32,000 bases of DNA from Nostoc punctiforme PCC 73102. Lineage in GTDB: Bacteria; Cyanobacteriota; Cyanobacteriia; Cyanobacteriales; Nostocaceae. Where the stretch lies: positions 570,001-602,000 of the forward strand of contig NC_010628.1 in NCBI RefSeq assembly GCF_000020025.1. The letters are read 5' to 3'. The notes below the pieces were generated by a model. It saw nothing but the letters and a program-made list of their open reading frames with translations. It had not been told where the DNA came from and did no database searches. Below are positions 3,762 to 20,836 of the stretch, in pieces. How positions within the stretch are numbered: position 1 is the stretch's first letter; every line of letters starts with the position of its first letter. The position numbers and the translations under genes are program-made.

Positions 3762-4199
3762 TTACTCTGGCTTGCTATCTGGCTCAGTGTATTTGCAGAA
3801 AACATTTATCCCAATTTTTAGAATATATAATACGACAATTGTGGCGATCGCACCATCAATCGGAATGCCATGCACTGCTGCAACAGCAACCAGGGAGCCA
3901 ATGATACTGTTGAGCAGAGAAGAACTACCAGGATTCTTGGTGTATTCTTTGATTGTGCCCCTTAAACCATCATCACCACAGATTTCCGCGCGGATTTCGT
4001 CAAGGGTCAGCTGCAAAAGAGATTTTTTGCCCCTACTATAATCTGTTTTGCCGACTTTCTCTTGCCAGAGTGTATCAAAACTTGCTTCTAGGTTGCCGTT
4101 ATGCTGTTGCAGGGTAGTAAGTGCATGTTGTGCTGGGGTGTCATTTGGCAGAAGTTGCTGAAGTTCTTGGATTTCGACAGAGGTTAATTGAGCATTCAT
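3762..4199 (-). CDS. Hypothetical 145-aa protein with a helical N-terminal part and a hydrophobic C-terminal region
   Basis: ATG-started ORF. The C-terminal segment SLLNSIIGSLVAVAAVHGIPIDGAIATIVVLYILKIGINVF is hydrophobic. No family recognised. Confidence 0.55.
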   Translation of the reverse strand: MNAQLTSVEIQELQQLLPNDTPAQHALTTLQQHNGNLEASFDTLWQEKVGKTDYSRGKKSLLQLTLDEIRAEICGDDGLRGTIKEYTKNPGSSSLLNSIIGSLVAVAAVHGIPIDGAIATIVVLYILKIGINVFCKYTEPDSKPE

Positions 4200-4221: not shown

Positions 4222-5639
4222 GGCTCTCACAGACTAGATATGTAAAATTAACAAAAGAAATACCAATTTAGTAAAACCCTTCTTCTAAAACTATTAAAGT
4301 TAGTTAAGCCATAAGCTCTGCATTTAATTAGCTTAATCTTCTGATTAATTCCTTCTACAATACCTTGAGTAGTTCGGCGATCAAAATAAGCAAGAATTTC
4401 ATCTATCCATCTACTTATAGTTCGGCAACTTTTGGGAAATAATTTATAAGCTCCTTGAGTCCATTCCAGGAATTTATCTAAAGCTTCATCACTGGTTATG
4501 GGACTTTCAAATATATCTCTAATGGCTTCTTTATTTCGATACATTTCTCCTAAGTCTGGAGCAACTTTTTTGAGTAAATCTATCTGAGCTTGTTCCTGAA
4601 AACTGAGGCATTCTTTTTTCTTTAACAAAGGGTATTTACTGTGAGTTAAGCCAGTTAATTTCTTTTCTCTTTCTTGGCGATTTTTAATTTTTAAGGCTGC
4701 TCTTTTTTCCTGTTTTCTTCTTGCGTCTAACTCCTGATTTATTTGTTTCATGACATGGAATCTATCTGCTACTACTTGAGCATTCGGTAGCATTTCTTGG
4801 ATTAAACTTTTATAGGGTATCCATAAGTCTATGCTGACTTCTTCTATTTGATTTAATATCTCTGAACCCAGACTGGATAGGTATTCTGCTATAACCGCTT
4901 TATTTCTCTTCTCTAACAATGCTATCGGTCTTCTTGTTTCTAAGTCTACTAATACTGCTGCATAATTCTTTCCTCCTTTTAATTGCGTGATTTCATCTAT
5001 TCCTAACTTTTTTATCTGGTTAGGTTTTTCTTTTAGTAGTTCTGATTCTAATTCTTTTAATATTGTTTCTATCTCAGATGAACTCATTCTATTTCTTCGG
5101 GCTGCATTCTCTACATCAGTTTCTAACACTTCCTTAATTACTTTGTTCGCTAATCTTTTTGTATAGGTTCTTCTACTTTTTACAAAAGATAGTTTCTCAC
5201 TAAATACTTTTTGGCATTCTGTACACTTTAATTGCCGACGATTTACTTTTAAAAATACTTGATAGTCACTCATGGGTATATCTCTGACTATATACCAATG
5301 ATTTTGATGAGTTTTATTAGTTGTCTTTCCACACCGAGGACACTGACCAACTTTTGATTGATTTTGGATTTCAATTACGATTTCATCATCAGTGATAAAA
5401 TCGTAATTCAATACTTTGATATCTTCAATATTAATAACTTTAGTAATAAAATGAAGTAAGGGATTAGAAGGCATATTTATTAAAATATTAATTCTATTTT
5501 CAATATTTCTTGTGTTTTATATTCTCAATTGCTTCTGTATTTCCTTCTCTGCACAGGCTGTTGCCACCGATTACTGCTATTCTATTGAGATATATTGAAT
5601 TTATTTATACTATTTTAACATAACTACTCTGGAAGAGCC
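4222..5639 (-). mobile_element. ISL3-family insertion sequence (1418 bp), apparently intact
   Basis: Terminal inverted repeats GGCTCTCACAGACTAGATATGTAAAATTA (4222->) and GGCTCTTCCAGAGTAGTTATGTTAAAATA (complement from 5639) match at 23 of 29 positions. A perfect 8-bp direct repeat ATTATTTA flanks the element at 4214-4221 and 5640-5647. It holds a single 408-aa transposase ORF. Confidence 0.85.
4248..5474 (-). CDS. ISL3 family transposase
   Basis: The N-terminal zinc-finger-like pairs CPRCG...CTEC and the central ADRFHV motif are typical of ISL3 (IS204/IS1001/IS1096/IS1165) transposases. Confidence 0.85.
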   Translation of the reverse strand: MPSNPLLHFITKVINIEDIKVLNYDFITDDEIVIEIQNQSKVGQCPRCGKTTNKTHQNHWYIVRDIPMSDYQVFLKVNRRQLKCTECQKVFSEKLSFVKSRRTYTKRLANKVIKEVLETDVENAARRNRMSSSEIETILKELESELLKEKPNQIKKLGIDEITQLKGGKNYAAVLVDLETRRPIALLEKRNKAVIAEYLSSLGSEILNQIEEVSIDLWIPYKSLIQEMLPNAQVVADRFHVMKQINQELDARRKQEKRAALKIKNRQEREKKLTGLTHSKYPLLKKKECLSFQEQAQIDLLKKVAPDLGEMYRNKEAIRDIFESPITSDEALDKFLEWTQGAYKLFPKSCRTISRWIDEILAYFDRRTTQGIVEGINQKIKLIKCRAYGLTNFNSFRRRVLLNWYFFC

Positions 5640-5644
5640 ATTAT

Positions 5645-6064
5645 TTATAGAGTATTTGTTAGTTCCTGAATCAACTCTTCAGGTGTGATAATTCTAGGAG
5701 TAGCAACTGGAAAATCTCTAGGGTTGCGAGTAATAATAGCATCCAAGTGATTGAGTACCGCAGCGCTGTATTGAATAGCGTCTTCAAAATCTCTAAAATT
5801 AGCAGTTAATGCAATGTTGATTGTGGTACTGTCTACTGTTGCGACTTGACAGAAGGTTACAATTCTATTTAAAAGCGATAGAGCAGATGCTCGACCTTTA
5901 TCTTTTCGAATGATGTAGTAGAGGTCACTAAAAGTAGAAGCAGAAAGATAACCTTCTATTTGTTTTTGATAAATAAATGAGAATACTTGTATAGTATTGC
6001 TGTAAAAGGAATGGCGTTCAAGAGCAAAATCCAAAATTATATTAGTGTCTAATAAGACTCTCAC
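5645..6064 (-). CDS. vapC: PIN-domain ribonuclease toxin (VapC-like)
   Basis: N-terminal (M)RVLLDTNIILDF, a later FRDFEDAIQ and ITRNPRDF are acidic PIN signature positions. The GTG start overlaps the upstream antitoxin stop by 4 nt (GTGA). Confidence 0.8.
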   Translation of the reverse strand: MRVLLDTNIILDFALERHSFYSNTIQVFSFIYQKQIEGYLSASTFSDLYYIIRKDKGRASALSLLNRIVTFCQVATVDSTTINIALTANFRDFEDAIQYSAAVLNHLDAIITRNPRDFPVATPRIITPEELIQELTNTL

Positions 6065-6366
6065 AGATTATGTTTCTCCCTCAAATATTCCCATTTGGCT
6101 TGGTCAGGGTCAAAATCTGAAGGAGTCGGCTCTGTACTTTTCAACCATTCTTTTAAAATAGGTATAGAGCATTCCACTATTCTTTTTTGCTTTTCAGGCT
6201 GGGACTGAATTTGATTTTCTCTAGAACTTTCCAAGGATGGAACTGGTTGCAAAATAATCACTTCTACCGTCCCTGGAGCAATATTTAGAGGTTCGTGAAT
6301 AATTAAATTACCGGATTCATCAATTGTGGCGTTGAGCTTATAGGCTTGCATATTGGTTTTCCTCAT
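6061..6366 (-). CDS. Putative antitoxin partner of the PIN toxin
   Basis: 101-aa ORF with a 4-nt overlap onto the toxin start. The N-terminal segment GNLIIHEPLNIAPGTVEVIIL resembles the small beta-domain antitoxins (AbrB/DUF104-like) found with PIN toxins. The start may be the internal Met (MQAYKL). Confidence 0.6.
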   Translation of the reverse strand: MRKTNMQAYKLNATIDESGNLIIHEPLNIAPGTVEVIILQPVPSLESSRENQIQSQPEKQKRIVECSIPILKEWLKSTEPTPSDFDPDQAKWEYLREKHNL

Positions 6367-6398: not shown

Positions 6399-6578
6399 TT
6401 ACAGATTATGTTTCTCCTTCAAAGCTTCCCATCTGGCTTGGTCTGGGTCAAAATCAGAAGGCGTGGGTTGTGTTTTTTCAAACCAGCCTTGCAAAGCTTT
6501 GATTTTTGTTTGTCTCTTCGGCTTTTCTGGCTGTGACTCAAAGGATGGAACTGGCTGCAAAATAGTACCTGAATCAAC
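6399..6578 (-). pseudogene. 5'-truncated paralogue of the adjacent antitoxin gene
   Basis: Minus-strand translation gives AIVDSGTILQPVPSFESQPEKPKRQTKIKALQGWFEKTQPTPSDFDPDQARWEALKEKHNL*. This is colinear with the C-terminal two-thirds of the 6061-6366 product (ILQPVPSLES...PTPSDFDPDQAKWEYLREKHNL*). An in-frame stop lies just upstream, and the N-terminal part is missing. Confidence 0.6.
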
Positions 6579-6607
6579 GATCGCAGTTAGCAGTTATAAG
6601 TGAATGT

Positions 6608-6796
6608 CTTATCGTCACCAACATTACAACATTAAGTCTTAACGCTATAACTTTAAGGCTTAACCTTATAACATTAAGGCTTAACGCTACAACATTAAGG
6701 CTTAACGCTATAACCTTAAGGCTTAACCTTACAACATTAATCACCAGCATTATAAGATTAAGGCTTAAGGTTACGACATTAAGCCTTAACATTACA
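6608..6796. repeat. Tandem array of about 9 copies of a 21-nt unit (consensus ACATTAAGGCTTAACGCTACA)
   Basis: Units were parsed by eye at 6608, 6629, 6650, 6671, 6692, 6713, 6734, 6755 and 6776. Most contain the near-palindrome TTAAGGCTTAA. Confidence 0.9.
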
Positions 6797-6890
6797 ACTT
6801 TTTGACAAAAGCTTATGCGATCGCTCTTTAGGGTAGTGTAATCTGTGCGATCGCTTGCAATACTTAACCAAAACTTATTTCAGGTGCTGC

Positions 6891-6927: not shown

Positions 6928-7087
6928 TCAACCTAGCTCATCCCGCGCTGTCCAAATTACCTCGCGCACCTCTCCCGCACACTCTTCACCCGTCGCCTCA
7001 CGCCAAATAAATTGAAACTGACTTTCGCCTAACTGCTGGAGCATACGGGCTAAATCATTAATACGATAATCAATCCAATCTTCATTA
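6928..7087 (-). pseudogene. Displaced 3' end (52 codons plus stop) of the CHAT-STAND-TPR gene, separated from it by an IS insertion
   Basis: The frame encoding NEDWIDYRINDLARMLQQLGESQFQFIWREATGEECAGEVREVIWTARDELG* joins in frame to codon 8093-8095 of the large ORF once the IS is removed. The 81-aa ORF in the track starts inside the IS. Confidence 0.6.
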
Positions 7088-8088
7088 GAGTTGTCGGGAA
7101 ATAAAAGATAAGTGAGGCAATGCTGGTCTTGTAATTGGGATTCTCTTAAGCAGCCATCAAGTAGAAGTTCCATAATCCTGCTGCGGTCAGCATCAAATGG
7201 TCATCAAAGTTTTCAATCCGATTACGATAAATGACACTGGCGGCGTTGTAGCGCTTCACACCAGCAAAGGCATTTTCGCAAACTACACGGGATTGACTCA
7301 ATTGACGATTCTCCGTTTTTTGAAGGTCACTTAACTTGCCCCCTTTGGGCTTTTTGTGAGGAAGATGGAGATTGTCATACTGCTTCTGTAATCCCTGAAA
7401 GCCCGAGTCTACTTCAATCGGAATTTCATCAGGCACACTACCTGCAATGTCATCTTCGTCATGAAAACGTTTGTCATGCAGTTTGCCTTCTCGTGCTTTG
7501 CTTAAGATCAAGACCCGTTTGGTTTCATCAACTGCCGCCAAGTGTTTACGCGTATGACGTTTCTTTTTACCGGAGTAATTCTGTTGTTGTTGTTCTCTTT
7601 CTTGAGGTCGCGCAATTGGGCGTTCTGTCCCATCAATCATCACTCGTTGCACTCCTGGAAAGCGTGACAAAAATGCTTCAATGCTTTCGAGATGGCGTTC
7701 CGGCAGCGCCATCTTCTGTCCCAAAGCCGCTTCTAATATTGGCTGCAATCGATGCATCCACTCATGTGCCTGGGAGCGATGCATATCAAAGAGCAGTCCC
7801 GCCACATCAAAGGTCGGATAACATTTGAAATAGAAAAGGATGAAAAACAATTTGTCTTGGGCTGTAAGTAAGCGGGCTTTGCGTCCTCCACCCAGGCCAC
7901 GTTGACGAGGCTTGGCCTGTTGAGTATCTAGGTACATCGTGGTAAACGTGGGCAAAAGGGCATCAAATGCTTTCCGGTTCAACCCAGTTAATGCCCTCAA
8001 CAGTCGGTCTTGCTTCAGCGCACCTTCAATATTCAGCATCATTCTTCCCTACCACTGCTGTCTATTCTCTCTTATTTCCCGACAAGTC
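7088..8088 (-). mobile_element. IS5/PIF-Harbinger-type insertion sequence (~1.0 kb)
   Basis: Imperfect terminal inverted repeats GAGTTGTCGGGAAATAAAAGATAA (7088->) and GACTTGTCGGGAAATAAGAGAGAA (complement from 8088). They are flanked by TA (7086-7087 and 8089-8090), or alternatively TTA (7085-7087 and 8091-8093). Single transposase ORF. Confidence 0.75.
7146..8042 (-). CDS. DDE transposase, IS5/Harbinger-like (DDE_Tnp_4-type)
   Basis: The motifs MIDGTERPI, NYSGKKKRHTRK, EVDSGFQG and RVVCENAFAGVKRY match the D-D-E layout I recall for HTH_Tnp_4/DDE_Tnp_4 transposases. Confidence 0.75.
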   Translation of the reverse strand: MMLNIEGALKQDRLLRALTGLNRKAFDALLPTFTTMYLDTQQAKPRQRGLGGGRKARLLTAQDKLFFILFYFKCYPTFDVAGLLFDMHRSQAHEWMHRLQPILEAALGQKMALPERHLESIEAFLSRFPGVQRVMIDGTERPIARPQEREQQQQNYSGKKKRHTRKHLAAVDETKRVLILSKAREGKLHDKRFHDEDDIAGSVPDEIPIEVDSGFQGLQKQYDNLHLPHKKPKGGKLSDLQKTENRQLSQSRVVCENAFAGVKRYNAASVIYRNRIENFDDHLMLTAAGLWNFYLMAA

Positions 8089-11000
8089 TATTATGCTCTA
8101 AGTCAATGGCTAAAACACGAATGTAAATTTGCAAAGCCTCAGCGTAATTTTCTTGAGCTTCTAAAACCCTTCCCCACTTACCCAATGTTGCTGAAGCCAA
8201 ATACCAATCGCGGAATTGCTCATAAATTTCCCAGGTTTTTTGATAATAATCAACAGCCACATCAAACAGCCGTTGCTCTTCGGCTACCCTGCCCAGTTGG
8301 TGATAGTCACTAGCAGCACTGTACAAATCCCCGGCATCTTCATATATCTTCAGCGCCTTGTTGTAGTAATCAACAGCCACATCAAACTGCCGTTGCTCTT
8401 GGGCTACCCTGCCCAGTTGGTGATATTCTTTAGCAGCACTGTACAAATCCCCGGCATCTTCAAATATCTTCAGCGCCTTGTTGTAGTAATCAACAGCCAC
8501 ATCAAACTGCCGTTGCTCTTGGGCAATATTGCCCAGTTCGTGATATTCTTTAGCAGCACTGTACAAATCCTCGGCATCTTCAAATATCTTCAGCGCCTTG
8601 TTGTAGTAATCAACAGCCACATCAAACTGCCGTTGCTCTTGGGCTACTATGCCCAGGTTGTGATATTCTTTAGCAGCACTGTACAAATCCCCGGTATCTT
8701 CTTTTATCTTCAGCGCCTTGTTGTAGTAATCAACAGCCACATCAAACTGCCGTTGCTCTTGGGCTACCCTGCCCAGTTGGTGATAGTCACTAGCAGCACT
8801 GTACAAATCCCCGGCATCTTCATATATCTTCAGCGCCTTGTTGTAGTAATCAACAGCCACATCAAACTGCCGTTGCTCTTGGGCTACTATGCCCAGGTTG
8901 TGATAAAAAACAGCAATTTTGTCATTCACTGAAAAGTCATTTATAGCTATCAATTCATCTAAAATTTCTTGATAAACTTTTCTCGCTTCTTCCAAAGAAG
9001 CACTTTGCAGTGCTTCGTTAGCTTCATATCCTCGCAGATACATCCAGAAATCCAAAGCATCTTTACCTTTTACTTTTGCATCTGCCAAGTGAATGCCAAT
9101 TTGGTTGAGCGCCCGTTGTTGCAGGGCTTTAAATTCAGGTTTGCGCCCTAAACGCTGATACACTTCTCCCAAAGCTTGTAGAATCGATTGTGCCTCAGCC
9201 CATTCCTTTTGATGTTCGGCAAGGCGTAAGTTTTGCAACAGATTTGGTTCTTCAACTCGCAGCACAAAAGTTGCCAGTTCTGCATTGCTGATGAGTTGCT
9301 CACGGTAATAATTAGCAAACCCTGCGTATAAAATCAGCAACTTTTTTTCGAGTTCGTTAATCACCTCCTGGGAAGTAATTGTGTTTAACTGCTGACGCAA
9401 ATACCAAGGTAGTGCTGGGTGAATTTTGTAGATAGTCTCACCCAAATATTCCAAAACACCTGCGGCTGCGGCTTCATTAAAAATTCTCATCCAATCTGGT
9501 TTTTGCAAGTTCTCCCCAAACACCGCTTGATAAGCTTGTCCAAATCCATTATCAGGACTTTCTGAAAAACTATACAGCCAACCTGCATCAACCCGTTCTG
9601 AAAACAGTGCCAAAAATGGTAGATGCTGACGTGTTCGTTCCGACAACTTAGCAAAAGAATAATCCAACGACACAGTAAGAGATTTTTCTCTCCCTTCTTC
9701 CTCTTGTCCCCTAAAAGTATCCAACCCCCGCCGCAGTGCCTCAATTAACTGCACAGGTGTCTGTGTCTTCAAATGCGGTAACACCACCCGCAAAGACAAC
9801 GGATGTCCCCCCAACAATTTCAACAATTCCAAATACTCTGCTGGTAGGTTTTTTCTCTCCACGCCCACCGTTTGCAAAATCTTCGCGGCTAACTCTTGGG
9901 CATCCGCTTCAGACAACCCCCGCAAGTTGATTAAACTATACCCACAATCTAACCAAGGTTCTTCGCGGCGACTGGTAATTAATACCCAAGCTTTACCAAC
10001 CCGCAATTCTTTAAGAAACCGCTTCAGCTTGTTTCTCTCTTCCCCACTCAATAATGGTTCATTCCCCGTGGGGAAACCGTTGACAGGTTCAAAGTTATCC
10101 CAAATCAACAAGCAAGGATTAGTTTGCAGATATTGCTGCACCACATCCTCTTGCTTATCTGGCATCATTTGGGAAAATCTCTCACCTCCTAACGCCCTAC
10201 CAATTTGGTTAATTACCTGACTCAACCCCGCGCCCTGTTCAAAGGAGGTGAAGAACATACCGCTTGTACGTCCTTGGGTATCATCTAACCACCGGGCGAA
10301 ACCTGCGACTAACTCAGTCTTCCCAACGCCGCCCATTCCCTGCACTAACACAACATGATTTTGCCGAAATGCTCTCTCTAAACGCAAAATCTCATAATCT
10401 CGCCCAATAAAACCATAAGCACTTTCATCAGGTAAACCTACAGCTTTACTATTTTCTGGGGTGTTGTCTGTTTGCGCCATCAAATCGGCAAAACTGGGTG
10501 CTGTCTTTTTAGGAACAAAAGGCGTATAGGGTTCCTGCTGATACAACACCGGCACAAGCCAATCTTGTAAAGGTAAATTTCCTTTGGGACTGGGACGCAT
10601 TTTGTCAATAGACATGGACTTCCGCCCTGCTGCAACTGCTGTGGCGATACACTCTCCCCTGACTAATTCCCCATACAACCGCCCAATAAAGTGTTCTGCA
10701 CCTTTGGCGTAAACTGAATACGCCATCGCTACTACACCCTTAGCCCCCAATTTCACCAACTGTCCCGCCACAGAAGAAAAAGCTTCTTCGCCTACTTGTC
10801 CAGACTGGCAAGCATTCAGCACAAAAATTGGCACGCGACAATCCGTTAAATATTGGGCAATTTCTCTAGCGCTGACAGCTTGCTCATTTCCCTGTTCATC
10901 CTCAAAAACTAAAACTCCCTGAGTCTCGCTGTCAAAATTCCCATGTCCATCAAAATGGACGATATGATAAAAACCCTTATGCGCTTGCAGTTCCGCTTCA

Positions 11001-11623
11001 AATGCTTTCAAGCTAGGGGGACGCAATACCTTAAGATTGACTCGCTGACGTATCGGTTGCAGCGCCGCCAGCAGGGGACGGGCAATGGTTTTAAACCCAA
11101 CGTCTTGCCGATCGTAAGGACGGGCAATAACTAGTAAAATATTCAGTTGGTCATCGGGCATTGCTGGCAATGGTGCTTTTACGCCCTGACTGCTGAGACT
11201 GCGATACATTCCCGCCAGTGAAGGTGCAAGAAATTGATAATCGGGGGAATATAGCAACTCCCAAGGCAAATTCAGCACGTTGGCGTTATCAGAAATGATA
11301 CCCAGTTCACACTTATCTAGCCCTTCCCGTATCGCTTCCTGAAAAAACTCTCTTCCTTTCTCTGTACTGCGAAATACTAGCTCAAATAAATGTTGTCCCC
11401 AGTGCTGTAATTTTTGTTCAATTTTTACAGCGTTATCTGGAAAAATACCGTAAGGAAACTTTAGATAATCTTCTAAATACCAGCGCAACTCAGCCGCGTT
11501 TTCTTTATCGAAGGGTTGCTGGAAGGCGACTTCTGACGCAAAGCGAGGATTTTCATATCCGCGTTGCCAAGAAAGTTGGATTTTGTCGTTTTGATGCGTA
11601 ATCCGCAACCAATTCTGCGCCAT
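8072..11623 (-). CDS. CHAT-domain protease / NB-ARC-type STAND P-loop ATPase / TPR-repeat protein (NLR-like), with its 3' end truncated by an IS
   Basis: CHAT region with His in IVHFDGHGN and Cys in FVLNACQSG. Walker A is LVQGMGGVGKTEL and the Walker B-like motif is CLLIWDNFE. The C-terminal ~400 aa are TPR repeats, including six near-identical 40-aa units. The likely ATG is at 11623; the track ORF starts at a GTG at 11638. The last 5 codons plus the stop are read from IS sequence. Confidence 0.85.
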   Translation of the reverse strand: MAQNWLRITHQNDKIQLSWQRGYENPRFASEVAFQQPFDKENAAELRWYLEDYLKFPYGIFPDNAVKIEQKLQHWGQHLFELVFRSTEKGREFFQEAIREGLDKCELGIISDNANVLNLPWELLYSPDYQFLAPSLAGMYRSLSSQGVKAPLPAMPDDQLNILLVIARPYDRQDVGFKTIARPLLAALQPIRQRVNLKVLRPPSLKAFEAELQAHKGFYHIVHFDGHGNFDSETQGVLVFEDEQGNEQAVSAREIAQYLTDCRVPIFVLNACQSGQVGEEAFSSVAGQLVKLGAKGVVAMAYSVYAKGAEHFIGRLYGELVRGECIATAVAAGRKSMSIDKMRPSPKGNLPLQDWLVPVLYQQEPYTPFVPKKTAPSFADLMAQTDNTPENSKAVGLPDESAYGFIGRDYEILRLERAFRQNHVVLVQGMGGVGKTELVAGFARWLDDTQGRTSGMFFTSFEQGAGLSQVINQIGRALGGERFSQMMPDKQEDVVQQYLQTNPCLLIWDNFEPVNGFPTGNEPLLSGEERNKLKRFLKELRVGKAWVLITSRREEPWLDCGYSLINLRGLSEADAQELAAKILQTVGVERKNLPAEYLELLKLLGGHPLSLRVVLPHLKTQTPVQLIEALRRGLDTFRGQEEEGREKSLTVSLDYSFAKLSERTRQHLPFLALFSERVDAGWLYSFSESPDNGFGQAYQAVFGENLQKPDWMRIFNEAAAAGVLEYLGETIYKIHPALPWYLRQQLNTITSQEVINELEKKLLILYAGFANYYREQLISNAELATFVLRVEEPNLLQNLRLAEHQKEWAEAQSILQALGEVYQRLGRKPEFKALQQRALNQIGIHLADAKVKGKDALDFWMYLRGYEANEALQSASLEEARKVYQEILDELIAINDFSVNDKIAVFYHNLGIVAQEQRQFDVAVDYYNKALKIYEDAGDLYSAASDYHQLGRVAQEQRQFDVAVDYYNKALKIKEDTGDLYSAAKEYHNLGIVAQEQRQFDVAVDYYNKALKIFEDAEDLYSAAKEYHELGNIAQEQRQFDVAVDYYNKALKIFEDAGDLYSAAKEYHQLGRVAQEQRQFDVAVDYYNKALKIYEDAGDLYSAASDYHQLGRVAEEQRLFDVAVDYYQKTWEIYEQFRDWYLASATLGKWGRVLEAQENYAEALQIYIRVLAIDLEHNRLVGK
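8161..8932 (-). repeat. Intragenic tandem 120-bp (40-codon) TPR-encoding repeats
   Basis: Five complete units lie at 8281, 8401, 8521, 8641 and 8761, with diverged flanking units. Unit 8281-8400 equals unit 8761-8880 at 119/120 nt. The distal 90 nt of each unit differ at only about 5 positions, clustered at 8331-8344 of the first unit. Confidence 0.9.
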
Positions 11624-11764
11624 ACCTACCGCCAACACTAGTTTAGATGCTACTTTATCTTAGTCATTCACGCAGAGGTTAGCTGATTACGCAAATGAAA
11701 TCAGTTAATTTGCGTCAAATCGTGGCGAATTGAGGGTTTAAATTTAAACGCATAGGCGCTTCTT

Positions 11765-15566: not shown

Positions 15567-15596
15567 ATTAGTCATTGGTCATTAGTCATTGGTCAC
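15567..15596. repeat. STRR-type heptamer array (ATTAGTC/ATTGGTC)
   Basis: About four tandem heptamers directly after the era stop. They are the inverse complement of the array at 15734-15788. Confidence 0.8.
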
Positions 15597-15733
15597 TTAT
15601 ACTGAGTTTCGACTGCGCGGAAATCGAGCGAAGTCGAGATTCAACTACCGCGTAGTCGTAAAGTCTGCGGCATAGCTAGGCTTAGGACGCAGCCTTTCCA
15701 AGAGTTGTATTGGTTAAAAAGGCAAAGGAGAAA

Positions 15734-15788
15734 GGACAAATGACTAATGACTAATGACTAATGACAAAGGACAAATGACTAATGACTC
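15734..15788. repeat. STRR-type heptamer array (TGACTAA/GGACAAA)
   Basis: About eight tandem heptamers, inverted relative to 15567-15596. Confidence 0.8.
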
Positions 15789-17246: not shown

Positions 17247-17371
17247 ACGGAGTTCAAAGACTCGTTCATGAGTATCTGAGGTGGATGAACGGAGTTCAAA
17301 GACTCGTTCGCGAGTATCTGAGGTGGATGAACGGAGTTCAAGGACTTGTTCGCGAGTATCAAAGACTCATC
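17247..17371. repeat. Tandem array of about 3 copies of a 42-nt unit
   Basis: acggagttcaaagactcgttcRYgagtatctgaggtggatga occurs at 17247 and 17289, with a partial third copy from 17331. Confidence 0.85.
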
Positions 17372-17393
17372 TTACAAATTACGCATAGCGGTA

Positions 17394-18255: not shown

Positions 18256-18729
18256 ATGATTAAATCTTGGATGGTGATTGGGGGCGTGGCTTTCTTAGTT
18301 GCTTTAGCCGCTAACGTGATTACGCCTAGCGATCGCCAATGGTTCAAGCGCTTACAACGACCAAGATGGCTAACTTTTGAGGGCGCGATTCCAATTATCT
18401 GGACTGTAATATTTATTTGCGGTGCTTGGTCAGCTTATATTGTCTGGGAAAAGGATCCAGGAAGCACCTCAACCTGGTTAATCATGGGTTTATATCTGCT
18501 GTTAGAAATAATTACTATCGCCTATACGCCTGTAATGTTTAGGCTTCGCAGTCTGAAAGTGGGTACAATTCTTGGAGGCACAGGTTTTATCATTGGTGCT
18601 TTATTGATACTTGCGGTCTTAGGTATTTCTGGTTGGGCAGCATTGCTACTAGTTCCTTATTTGCTTTGGAGTCCCATTGGTACTTACACCACTTGGCAGA
18701 TGATCGGTCTCAATCCTCAAGATGCCTAA
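18256..18729 (+). CDS. TspO/MBR-like tryptophan-rich membrane protein
   Basis: 157 aa with about five hydrophobic helices. The segment WFKRLQRPRWLTF...IIWTVIFICGAWSAYIVW resembles the TspO W-x-x-L-x-[KR]-P-x-W signature. Confidence 0.6.
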   Translation: MIKSWMVIGGVAFLVALAANVITPSDRQWFKRLQRPRWLTFEGAIPIIWTVIFICGAWSAYIVWEKDPGSTSTWLIMGLYLLLEIITIAYTPVMFRLRSLKVGTILGGTGFIIGALLILAVLGISGWAALLLVPYLLWSPIGTYTTWQMIGLNPQDA

Positions 18730-18819
18730 AATTCGCACCAACGAATGATTAAAGCTATGCCCTAAATTGTCAAACTTGCAGTGTATAACTTGACAAAATA
18801 CACAAAGCTTGAGGTCATT

Positions 18820-19293
18820 ATGATTCCATCTTGGCTAATAATTGGGGCTGTAACTTTCTTAATCGCTCTTGGAAGTTTCTTGATTACGCCGCGTGATGTT
18901 AAATGGTTTGCACTATTAAGTCGCCCTCGCTGGCTAGTTTTTGAGCCTCTGATTCCACTCATCTGGACTGTGATTTTTATTTGCGGTGCAGCTTCAGCTT
19001 ATGTTGTGTGGGAAAAAAATCCCGGAAGCCCAATTACTTGGTTAATAATGGCTTTGTACCTTTTGGTGGAAATTATCACCGTTGCCTACATACCTATAAT
19101 GCTGAGGTTTCGCAGTCTCAAAGCAGGGGAGATTCTTGGGCTAGTTGGTTTGATTTCAGGCGTTGTCCTCGCAATCTGCGTTTTGCCGATTTCTCTAATG
19201 GCGGCGCTGTTACTCCTTCCCTATCTAATTTGGACTCCCATTGGTACTTACACTACCGACGAGTTAAAGGAACTGAATCCTCAAGATGCATAA
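18820..19293 (+). CDS. TspO/MBR-like protein, tandem paralogue
   Basis: Colinear with the upstream gene (WFALLSRPRWLVF...LIWTVIFICGAASAYVVWEKNPGS). I prefer the ATG at 18820, preceded by GAGG. The track ORF starts at a GTG at 18781. Confidence 0.6.
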   Translation: MIPSWLIIGAVTFLIALGSFLITPRDVKWFALLSRPRWLVFEPLIPLIWTVIFICGAASAYVVWEKNPGSPITWLIMALYLLVEIITVAYIPIMLRFRSLKAGEILGLVGLISGVVLAICVLPISLMAALLLLPYLIWTPIGTYTTDELKELNPQDA

Positions 19294-20006: not shown

Positions 20007-20267
20007 CTAGTCAGCCACACAAAAAATTACGGATTTCAACGCAAGCATAACATTCTTAGGACTTATACAGAAGAGATCCCTCAACCTCCTTAAAAAGGGG
20101 GCTTAAGAGGAATCGAGGTTTCAAGCTTTGATTGCTTACAGCTATTTTCAGGGAAATAGACCACGCGGTAGGCGCGTAAGGCCTTGCGTCCCTACGACAG
20201 GTGTGGTTCAAATACATGAAAACTGTTGTAATTACAGTTTTGTGTAAAAACGTAGCGTTTTTAATAC

Positions 20268-20453
20268 AGAGGGATGCATTAATATTGCAGCCAACGCATT
20301 GGCATTGTAGAGAGATGCATTAGCATTGCAGAGGGATGCATTAACATTGCAGCCGTCGCATTGGCATTGCAGAGGGATGCATTAACATTGCAGCCGTCGC
20401 ATTGGCATTGTAGAGGGATGCATTAACATTGCAGCCAACGCATTAGGATTGTA
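20268..20453. repeat. Tandem array of about 4.5 copies of a 41-nt composite unit (21 + 20 nt)
   Basis: AGAGGGATGCATTAACATTGC alternates with AGCCRWCGCATTGGCATTGY. Both halves share a GCATTnnCATTG core. Confidence 0.85.
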
Positions 20454-20836
20454 AGCTATTACAAAATTTAATTTGCTACAAATTAATGAAATGCTCTACT
20501 ATAGCAATCCTAAATGATTTGTGAAAAATACTCTTTTTAACAAACCGCTAAGGGCGCAAAGGAAGCATTCGCGCAGCGTCTCGAAGAGAAGAAGAAGAGG
20601 AGAAAGAATTTCACGAATGATTTAGGACTGCGATAAGTTTTGATTTTGTCTATAGAACTCATATTTGATTTTTGAAAAACCCCGTACAACTCAAGAAGCC
20701 TTCTTTCCTATTGCCTATTGCCTCTTGCCTTCCTACGCAAGTAAGTTTAAAAATCAAAGCGGATTCCTATATAAGATTAAACTCTACTTAAATATTGTGC
20801 TGTTTCCTTTGTGCCCTTGCGGTTTGTTTCTCCAAA

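Follow-up and report, generated by a model that had tools for sequence, protein, structure and literature searches.

NLR proteins of fungi carry WD, ANK, and TPR repeats that combine high internal conservation with polymorphism in repeat number and with selected positions on the binding face (PMC4986451). In bacterial NLRs, WD and TPR repeats are 80 to 90% internally identical and may diversify in the same manner (Dyrka et al. 2020, bioRxiv 10.1101/2020.01.06.895854). Highly repetitive WD40 proteins with diverse hotspot sites are frequent in Cyanobacteria (Hu et al. 2017, PMC5587647), and NLR-like proteins with such repeats are found in all domains of life (Ament-Velasquez et al. 2026, PMC13449251 section 12), CHAT being named in the legend of a curated full-architecture figure (PMC13449251). 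For NLR-like proteins of bacteria, those bearing CHAT included, repeats of high internal conservation are already in the literature. Here we describe one such protein from Nostoc punctiforme PCC 73102, encoded on the minus strand of a 32,000-nucleotide stretch of contig NC_010628.1 (positions 570,001 to 602,000; hereafter the window, numbered from its first letter). Its product combines a CHAT protease, a STAND NTPase, and five near-identical TPR units, and probably represents an NLR-like protein whose sensor array is homogenised by inter-unit recombination while diversity is retained at groove-facing residues. An earlier note on this DNA had likened the repeats to those of fungal NLRs; the repeat pattern matches, but the comparison is not new, having already been made for bacterial NLRs (bioRxiv 10.1101/2020.01.06.895854; PMC13449251).

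Fungal NLRs such as Podospora nwd/HNWD and the sesB-like/NB-ARC/TPR protein Pa_2_10340 (Dyrka et al. 2014, PMC4986451) have the same effector-NOD-repeat architecture. Like the Nostoc array, they contain repeats that are more than 80 to 90% identical, polymorphic in number, and variable at few positions, which in the TPR case lie on the concave face, and the reshuffling of units with concerted evolution that has been proposed for them resembles what we propose for Nostoc. The Nostoc protein differs in being bacterial, in carrying a CHAT effector instead of HET, HeLo, or sesB, and in a signal of positive selection confined to the youngest arrays. Exchange of units between paralogues was not found for the Nostoc array in a protein search with the array alone, which recovered just 12 contig-end fragments and no second architecture and did not cover the N. 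punctiforme genome itself. The fungal units have 42 residues, against 40 in the Nostoc unit. The bacterial and archaeal NLR-like proteins surveyed previously (Dyrka 2020; Ament-Velasquez 2026; Hu 2017) display the same phenomenon in the same taxon, with conserved repeats enriched in ATPase-containing proteins of Cyanobacteria and Actinobacteria and with diversity noted at putative interaction hotspots. Those surveys were made at the protein level and include neither this Nostoc locus, nor a codon-level syntenic comparison, nor the alternation of array types on one chassis. New here are the codon-level comparison of syntenic orthologues, a hypervariable diversity that is independent of scaffold age, variant codons that several species have in common, the occurrence of near-identical and diverged arrays on one chassis, and truncation of the gene by an insertion sequence (IS).

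The open reading frame (ORF; window 8072 to 11638, minus strand, as are all parts of the gene) has 1,188 codons and is 100% identical to database protein P0004, whose entry of 1,183 residues fits a start at Met6 (window 11623). Residues 111 to 347 (10598 to 11308) form a CHAT caspase-like protease (PF12770; 86 bits, Pfam cutoff 24), with a His/Cys pair in the motifs HFDGHG (H228/H232) and NACxSG (C277) that is invariant in 53 relatives. The STAND P-loop NTPase (residues ~406 to 600; 9839 to 10423) was recognised by NB-ARC (25.9 bits, cutoff 23.5), with AAA_16, nSTAND1, and NACHT all matching below their Pfam cutoffs; its Walker A (GMGGVGKT, 434 to 441) and Walker B (LLIWD, 510 to 514) motifs are likewise invariant across the 53 relatives. 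According to AlphaFold secondary structure, the array is preceded, at residues 601 to 911 (8906 to 9838), by a helical/winged-helix region together with TPR-like helices that are not repetitive, and Pfam together with the model assigns 601 to 760 to the helical region and 761 to 1183 to TPRs, the TPR_12-type repeat region matching strongly (150 bits). Five near-identical units of 120 nucleotides (40 residues) follow, delimited by Tandem Repeats Finder and codon alignment (residues 912 to 1111; 8306 to 8905), then a sixth, diverged unit (1112 to 1151; 8186 to 8305) that is kept as the terminal unit in all orthologues, and, from orthologue alignment and the AlphaFold model, capping helices (1152 to 1183; 8090 to 8185) that reach the IS junction. 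A scan of one genome per species gave 26 Nostoc-group loci (designated below by L numbers), several of them cut by contig ends.

The three-part architecture of an NLR is present: an N-terminal effector, an NTPase with a helical arm, and C-terminal repeats. On its domain content (CHAT, NB-ARC/AAA_16, and TPR_12), the predicted gene product is an NLR-like STAND protein. No NCBIfam model reached its cutoff for it. An AlphaFold model built on an alignment of the relatives has a pLDDT of 90 to 96 in the TPRs and the array, lower values elsewhere, and low values in parts of the NTPase. Its best match among solved structures (Foldseek) is PH0952 (PDB 6mfv), a STAND ATPase that, like Avs proteins, shares with the Nostoc protein a STAND NTPase, a helical arm, and a TPR sensor. 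It differs in having only 17% identity and a poor global superposition (TM 0.29/0.48), and the Nostoc protein has no Avs match in PADLOC. To our knowledge, high internal repeat conservation has not been described for the sensor domains of STAND-TPR or Avs proteins. Next in the Foldseek results are the 40-residue TPRs of LGN/Pins/GPSM2 (3ro2, 4wnd, 4a1s), which have the same unit length as the Nostoc repeats, align with them by phmmer without gaps over 182 residues, and have a similar fold (TM 0.71 to 0.83, root mean square deviation ~3 Å). LGN/Pins is, however, a eukaryotic polarity protein with ordinary diverged repeats (~20% identity) and without an NTPase or protease.

In codon register, the five units occupy residues 912 to 951, 952 to 991, 992 to 1031, 1032 to 1071, and 1072 to 1111 (window 8905 down to 8306). 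Tandem Repeats Finder reported a period of 120, 5.5 copies, 93% matches, and zero indels, in agreement with the gapless 120-bp units described in the earlier note. Mean pairwise nucleotide identity among the units is 93.5% (range, 109 to 119 of 120, or 91 to 99%), which places the array among highly internally conserved repeats, defined as units at least 80 to 85% identical within one protein. There are 14 variable nucleotide sites with at least 17 changes, confined to 8 codons (unit positions 3, 6, 7, 28, 31, 32, 39, and 40), and the amino acid is altered at each of these codon columns, while the other 32 codons (96 nucleotides) are identical at the nucleotide level in all five units. In simulations that placed 17 random substitutions on the unit, the probability of no synonymous change was 0.02 and that of hitting 8 codons or fewer was 5.5e-5, so chance can be ruled out as the source of this amino-acid-changing pattern.

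The codon alignment upholds the earlier claim that every difference is nonsynonymous, as far as the five units are concerned (8/8 variable codons). It lowers the reported count of about nine variable codons to eight, the ninth, a Q/E difference, belonging to the sixth, diverged unit, where all synonymous changes of the N. punctiforme repeats sit. The 119/120 match given between units 8281 to 8400 and 8761 to 8880 is correct, and in that same register 8161 to 8280 is only ~60% identical to the remaining units. An antisense ORF of 238 codons on the plus strand (8216 to 8932) spans the array. We rejected it as a gene: it stays open because each of the identical units is free of stops in that frame, and it is likewise open in L021 and L025.

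Arrays of this kind invite the suspicion that the assembly holds a collapsed or chimeric version of a longer or different repeat block. Short-read assemblies of relatives do break or are masked at the array: the contigs of L005 and L010 end there, the isolate assembly L020 has its array replaced by N (~8760 to 9143; 379 N within the array), and array-only protein fragments lie on contigs of ~1 kb. The window, however, matches a single 8.23-Mb contig named Nostoc punctiforme, on which the exact 1,183-residue protein is recorded. The array extends over just 600 bp, has distinguishing sites in every unit, and keeps an unbroken reading frame throughout, and arrays of the same type with other unit numbers are present on 6.3- to 8.3-Mb contigs of other Nostoc genomes. 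Mis-assembly of a 600-bp array on a contig of 8.23 Mb is unlikely, and we give the artefact explanation very little credence.

The comparison of loci indicates that the array turns over in place. Flanking genes are common to all 26 loci and the window, with an AstE-like gene upstream in 21 and, downstream, orf145 in 22 and a histidine phosphatase gene in 19; because these flanks are shared, the loci are, by gene order, positional orthologues in a conserved chromosomal neighbourhood and not a mobile island. Outside the repeats (residues 1 to 905), the gene differs from its orthologues at a synonymous proportion (pS) of 0.17 to 0.31. Near-identical units number 3 to 10 per array, and the proteins accordingly step by 40 residues from ~1,153 to 1,393, so that unit number and order have changed within this modest divergence. 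Since such differences also occur on contigs of 6.3 to 8.3 Mb (7 units in PCC 7107, 5 in a JGI genome, and 4 in N. edaphicum), the turnover is real. The unit turnover suggested in the earlier note is thereby borne out in a between-species comparison, the orthologues not having identical repeat content.

Not all syntenic orthologues carry near-identical units. In L011, L014, L015, L016, L018, and the protein P0040 (from a 7.9-Mb contig), the 40-residue TPRs are of the ordinary kind and have diverged from one another. Identity between the N. punctiforme protein and P0040 is 98% in CHAT and 95% in the NTPase, falls to 70% in the pre-array helices, 40% in the five repeat units, and 35% in the sixth unit, and returns to 84% in the cap and 82% in the tail. 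A neighbour-joining tree built from the N-terminal 2.7 kb, the robustness of which was not assessed, intersperses the loci that have diverged arrays with those that have near-identical ones. Together with the P0040 identities, this scatter indicates that the sensor module changes over evolution, or is swapped, independently of the signalling chassis, which hardly varies.

In LGN/Pins, the A helices form a concave channel that holds the peptide ligand, and most of the diversity of the Nostoc units is predicted to fall on the corresponding face. Among 89 units from 17 arrays, the columns of highest diversity are 6, 39, 28, 40, 22, 9, 3, and 10 (entropy 1.6 to 2.7 bits), followed by 18, 36, 31, 32, and 34, and the scaffold columns are nearly invariant. 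A phmmer alignment to a crystallised consensus TPR set the register, unit position n corresponding to TPR position n+3 (S36 = 33; K39 = 2). Unit positions 39, 3, 6, 9, 10, and 36 become TPR positions 2, 6, 9, 12, 13, and 33, and 40 and 7 adjoin them. TPR positions 2, 5, 9, 12, 13, 33, and 34 are the most variable of the motif and lie on its concave face (Magliery and Regan, PMC1261162), and ligand binding by HOP uses positions 2, 5, 6, 9, 12, and 13 (PMC1261162). Helix A of the model consists of unit positions 34 to 40 plus 1 to 10; variability along it has a significant helical moment directed opposite to Y1, L4, G5, and A8, the conserved residues that pack (p = 0.027), and the exposed convex positions of helix B are mostly conserved. 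Most of the hypervariable positions are therefore predicted, from the alignment, to lie on the concave ligand-binding face of TPR helix A. The earlier note had proposed this face as a check on its reading, and most variable positions do map to canonical concave ones, with 22, 28, 31, and 32 as exceptions.

Within arrays, nonsynonymous (pN) and synonymous (pS) differences were computed by NG86. Whole-unit pN/pS is 2.4 in the N. punctiforme array and 1.4 in L021, the only two without appreciable synonymous divergence; in other arrays, pS is 0.10 to 0.48 and whole-unit pN/pS is 0.24 to 0.66. The absence of synonymous differences described earlier is consequently true of this young array and not of the family. 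Pooled across arrays, pN/pS is 0.12 at scaffold codons and 1.35 at the seven most variable columns. At the hypervariable columns, pN is ~0.28 to 0.46 in 16 of 17 arrays (the exception, L019, has 0.11) over whole-unit pS values from 0.03 to 0.48. The ratio of hypervariable-column pN to whole-unit pS (omega_hv) is 10.3 in N. punctiforme, 5.9 in L021, 2 to 3 in L003, L005, L010, and L025, and ~0.7 to 1.1 in old arrays.

These ratios bear on a neutral explanation, in which a single TPR unit was recently amplified in tandem in a scaffold or adaptor protein and the variable sites are unconstrained surface, with no selection for diversity and no receptor diversification. The pooled value and those of the older arrays are near neutrality, highly repetitive prokaryotic repeats have been interpreted as recent duplications (PMC5587647), some syntenic orthologues have ordinary diverged TPRs, and the gene is dispensable enough to be hit by an IS or deleted. 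After a recent neutral amplification, however, the variable codons would be no more diverse than the scaffold, and in the five units 26 scaffold codons have 0 differences beside 8 codons with at least 17 changes, several of these nearby codons differing by 2 to 3 nucleotides. A homogenised scaffold beside diverse codons is hard to obtain without selection that keeps diversity there. The diversity of the hypervariable columns, moreover, is largely independent of scaffold age across the 17 arrays, and the variable sites line up along a single stripe of helix A that matches known TPR ligand positions, whereas the equally exposed convex face of helix B is mostly conserved. We regard the neutral explanation as unlikely, though with some standing, and selection maintaining diversity at the hypervariable codons as likely but not proven on these codon comparisons.

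The variants themselves are widely shared. Of 19 variant codon states in the array, 18 recur, spelled by the same codon, in arrays of other species (for example, ATG/ATA/AAT/AGG at column 6, TAT/TTT/AAA at column 28, and AGTGAC, AGAGAA, and AAAGAA at columns 39 and 40), and each N. punctiforme unit is as near to a unit of another species (114 to 117 of 120) as to the units next to it. The differences thus do not belong to this array alone, and this accounts for the absence of synonymous ones as well. Within the array, N,I and Q,R (positions 3/6) are each found paired both with SD and with KE (positions 39/40), so that all four pairings are present, a pattern to be expected if units recombine internally. 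The shuffling of fixed cassettes was rejected: with all units considered, linkage between hypervariable positions hardly extends past adjacent codons, so a unit is not passed on whole as a cassette. Many of the shared states lie a single codon step apart (ATG/ATA/AGG/ACG/GTG; AGT/AGA/AAA/GGT), and given the weak linkage, recurrent mutation is inseparable from the re-assortment of old variants. The variant codons were either inherited or hit recurrently, the number of reachable codons being small.

A scaffold identical at the nucleotide level, with amino acid changes only, would also be explained by targeted hypermutation, in which a diversity-generating retroelement (DGR) or similar system rewrites chosen codons and resets the rest from a template. 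The A allele (coding strand) is present at 14/14 variable nucleotide sites of the N. punctiforme array, and cyanobacterial conflict-system receptors are known DGR targets (PMC7517822, PMC10907252, PMC7159879). In other arrays, however, A is found at only 69% of variable sites, ordinary synonymous differences occur throughout the unit in most orthologous arrays, and the variant codon states are nearly all held in common with other species. Residues that the usual mutagenesis of AAY codons does not yield (K, E, Q, and M) are common among the variant states. A scan of ten ORFs between 3079 and 16484 revealed no reverse transcriptase, and no extra template copy of the unit exists within the 32-kb window. 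With no reverse transcriptase among these ORFs, no template repeat in the window, and no A bias in the other arrays, the locus does not qualify as a DGR target, and we consider targeted hypermutation extremely improbable.

Between species, scaffold pS is 0.03 to 0.05 (against L005, L019, L021, and L025), compared with 0.19 to 0.25 in the rest of the gene. Special synonymous conservation of the scaffold was considered and rejected. The N. punctiforme array equals the family consensus and so approximates the ancestral unit, and the expected number of fixed scaffold differences is small (~1.6 per lineage by our own estimate); no special mechanism is needed.

The observations support a model in which duplication, deletion, and gene conversion between units, by homologous recombination within the array, would keep the 120-bp units near-identical and would also alter their number. 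Diversity would be kept at about 8 to 13 codons per unit, mostly in the exposed helix-A stripe that lines the concave groove of the superhelix. New binding surfaces would then arise mainly as units are re-assorted and re-numbered and as a few codon states turn over, while the scaffold stays constant. Release of the sensor followed by oligomerisation is the accepted model for the STAND class. By analogy with STAND proteins, a ligand bound in the TPR groove would release autoinhibition, permitting NTP-dependent oligomerisation and activation of the CHAT protease. We infer this activation pathway, and with it the sensor role, the recombination mechanism, selection for diversity, and any immune or cell-death function.

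Several observations weigh against this model. The hypervariable ratios near 1, taken alone, are compatible with relaxed constraint, and the near-absence of linkage between hypervariable positions likewise counts against it. Strong variation is also seen at positions 22 and 28 of helix B and at 31/32 in the loop, which are non-canonical for binding, position 28 lying on the packing face of helix B, and placement on the concave face was derived from the alignment and from published positions rather than from measured geometry. PADLOC returned neither an Avs nor a bNACHT model and no named defence family, its matches being limited to a generic TPR model and weak hits in the CHAT region (BovA, SAVED_CHAT). 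Finally, the gene is interrupted by an IS in N. punctiforme and eroded in some relatives. With these points counted, we still hold recombinational homogenisation of an NLR-like sensor array, with diversity retained in its groove, to be the probable explanation.

The interruption was recognised from inverted repeats, transposase domains, and end sequences. An IS5-like element of 1,003 bp (7087 to 8089, minus strand) has terminal inverted repeats AGAGTTGTCGGGAAATAA and AGACTTGTCGGGAAATAA; inverted repeats detected at 7086 to 7111 and 8065 to 8090 flank a transposase ORF (7146 to 8042, minus strand; DDE_Tnp_4 and HTH_Tnp_4); a 3-bp target duplication, ATT, is present at 7084 to 7086 and 8090 to 8092. 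The final 5 codons and stop of the CHAT-STAND-TPR ORF (8072 to 8089) are IS sequence. When the IS and one ATT are taken out, ...LAIDLEHN continues in frame after residue 1183 into EDWIDYRINDLARMLQQLGESQFQFIWREATGEECAGEVREVIWTARDELG (6931 to 7083), the displaced 3' end of the gene, whose 51 codons plus stop occupy 6928 to 7083 on the minus strand and were identified by a match to orthologue P0021 (86% identity to its residues 1180 to 1229). A comparison of the IS with a plasmid collection gave no match.

This C-terminal tail is kept in all full-length orthologues, and several of its residues are nearly invariant. Since the IS removes the conserved 51 residues, the N. punctiforme copy is probably impaired or newly inactivated; the remainder of the ORF shows no decay. 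The repeat pattern partly supports the earlier proposal that the same diversifying process acts on this bacterial sensor, but it is doubtful that, in this strain, the process continues on a sensor that works. Among relatives, L024 (6001 to 7691) is without residues 83 to 200 and the entire TPR array, L026 (6001 to 8953) is without the NTPase region and has a broken frame, and L019 has an in-frame TAG in one unit (9161), all three being metagenome-assembled genomes in which errors are possible. Given these deletions and the stop codon, the gene is evidently dispensable, as read from the assemblies.

Downstream, the window has acquired further elements. Inserted between the CHAT-STAND-TPR gene and orf145 are, besides the IS, an ISL3 transposase gene and a PIN/antitoxin pair. 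The transposase gene lies at 4248 to 5474, the PIN-domain toxin gene at 5645 to 6064, and an overlapping putative antitoxin gene of 101 codons at 6061 to 6366, with a second copy of the antitoxin 3' end at 6401 to 6495 (95 nucleotides, 81% identical). L021 and L025 are without mobile or addiction elements at the position of window 4248 to 6366. The product of orf145 (3762 to 4199, minus strand) has no Pfam match and a hydrophobic C-terminal stretch. In 22/26 Nostoc loci, orf145 is the conserved same-strand downstream neighbour, at 76 to 97% identity, and its product may be a partner or protease substrate of the CHAT-STAND-TPR protein.

Elsewhere in the window, tandem repeats lie at 6599 to 6829 (21 nucleotides), 17247 to 17372 (42 nucleotides), and 20251 to 20475 (41/62 nucleotides), the first of which makes a spurious ORF of 72 codons at 6574 to 6792. 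Heptamer arrays at 15567 to 15603 and 15718 to 15787 (TTGGTCA/GACTAAT type, inverted), between an Era GTPase gene and a response-regulator gene, resemble cyanobacterial STRR repeats. The adjacent same-strand ORFs at 18256 to 18729 (157 codons) and 18781 to 19293 (170 codons) have ~71% nucleotide identity over at least 400 nucleotides, which indicates a tandem gene duplication.

The locus offers a clean, syntenic, single-copy bacterial case, in a group with many sequenced Nostoc genomes and a genetically tractable strain. Hypotheses examined mainly in fungi, such as the origin of conserved arrays from ordinary repeats and selection on the groove, become testable in a bacterium, and the pace of unit-number change, the ligand, and the CHAT substrate can be addressed as well. 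There is also a lesson for annotation, in that the N. punctiforme gene is truncated by an IS and short-read assemblies routinely break or mask such arrays. It is conceivable, though improbable, that the locus is a bacterial counterpart of a polymorphic recognition locus, in which one invariant CHAT-NTPase chassis would bear deeply different versions of the sensor, some with 3 to 10 near-identical units and others with fully diverged TPRs. If the proposed diversification is true, RecA-type recombination between 120-bp units would regenerate and re-assort the near-identical arrays quickly enough to generate receptor heterogeneity between strains or even between filaments and would amount to a combinatorial diversification of receptors by which a multicellular bacterium would recognise phage or non-self.

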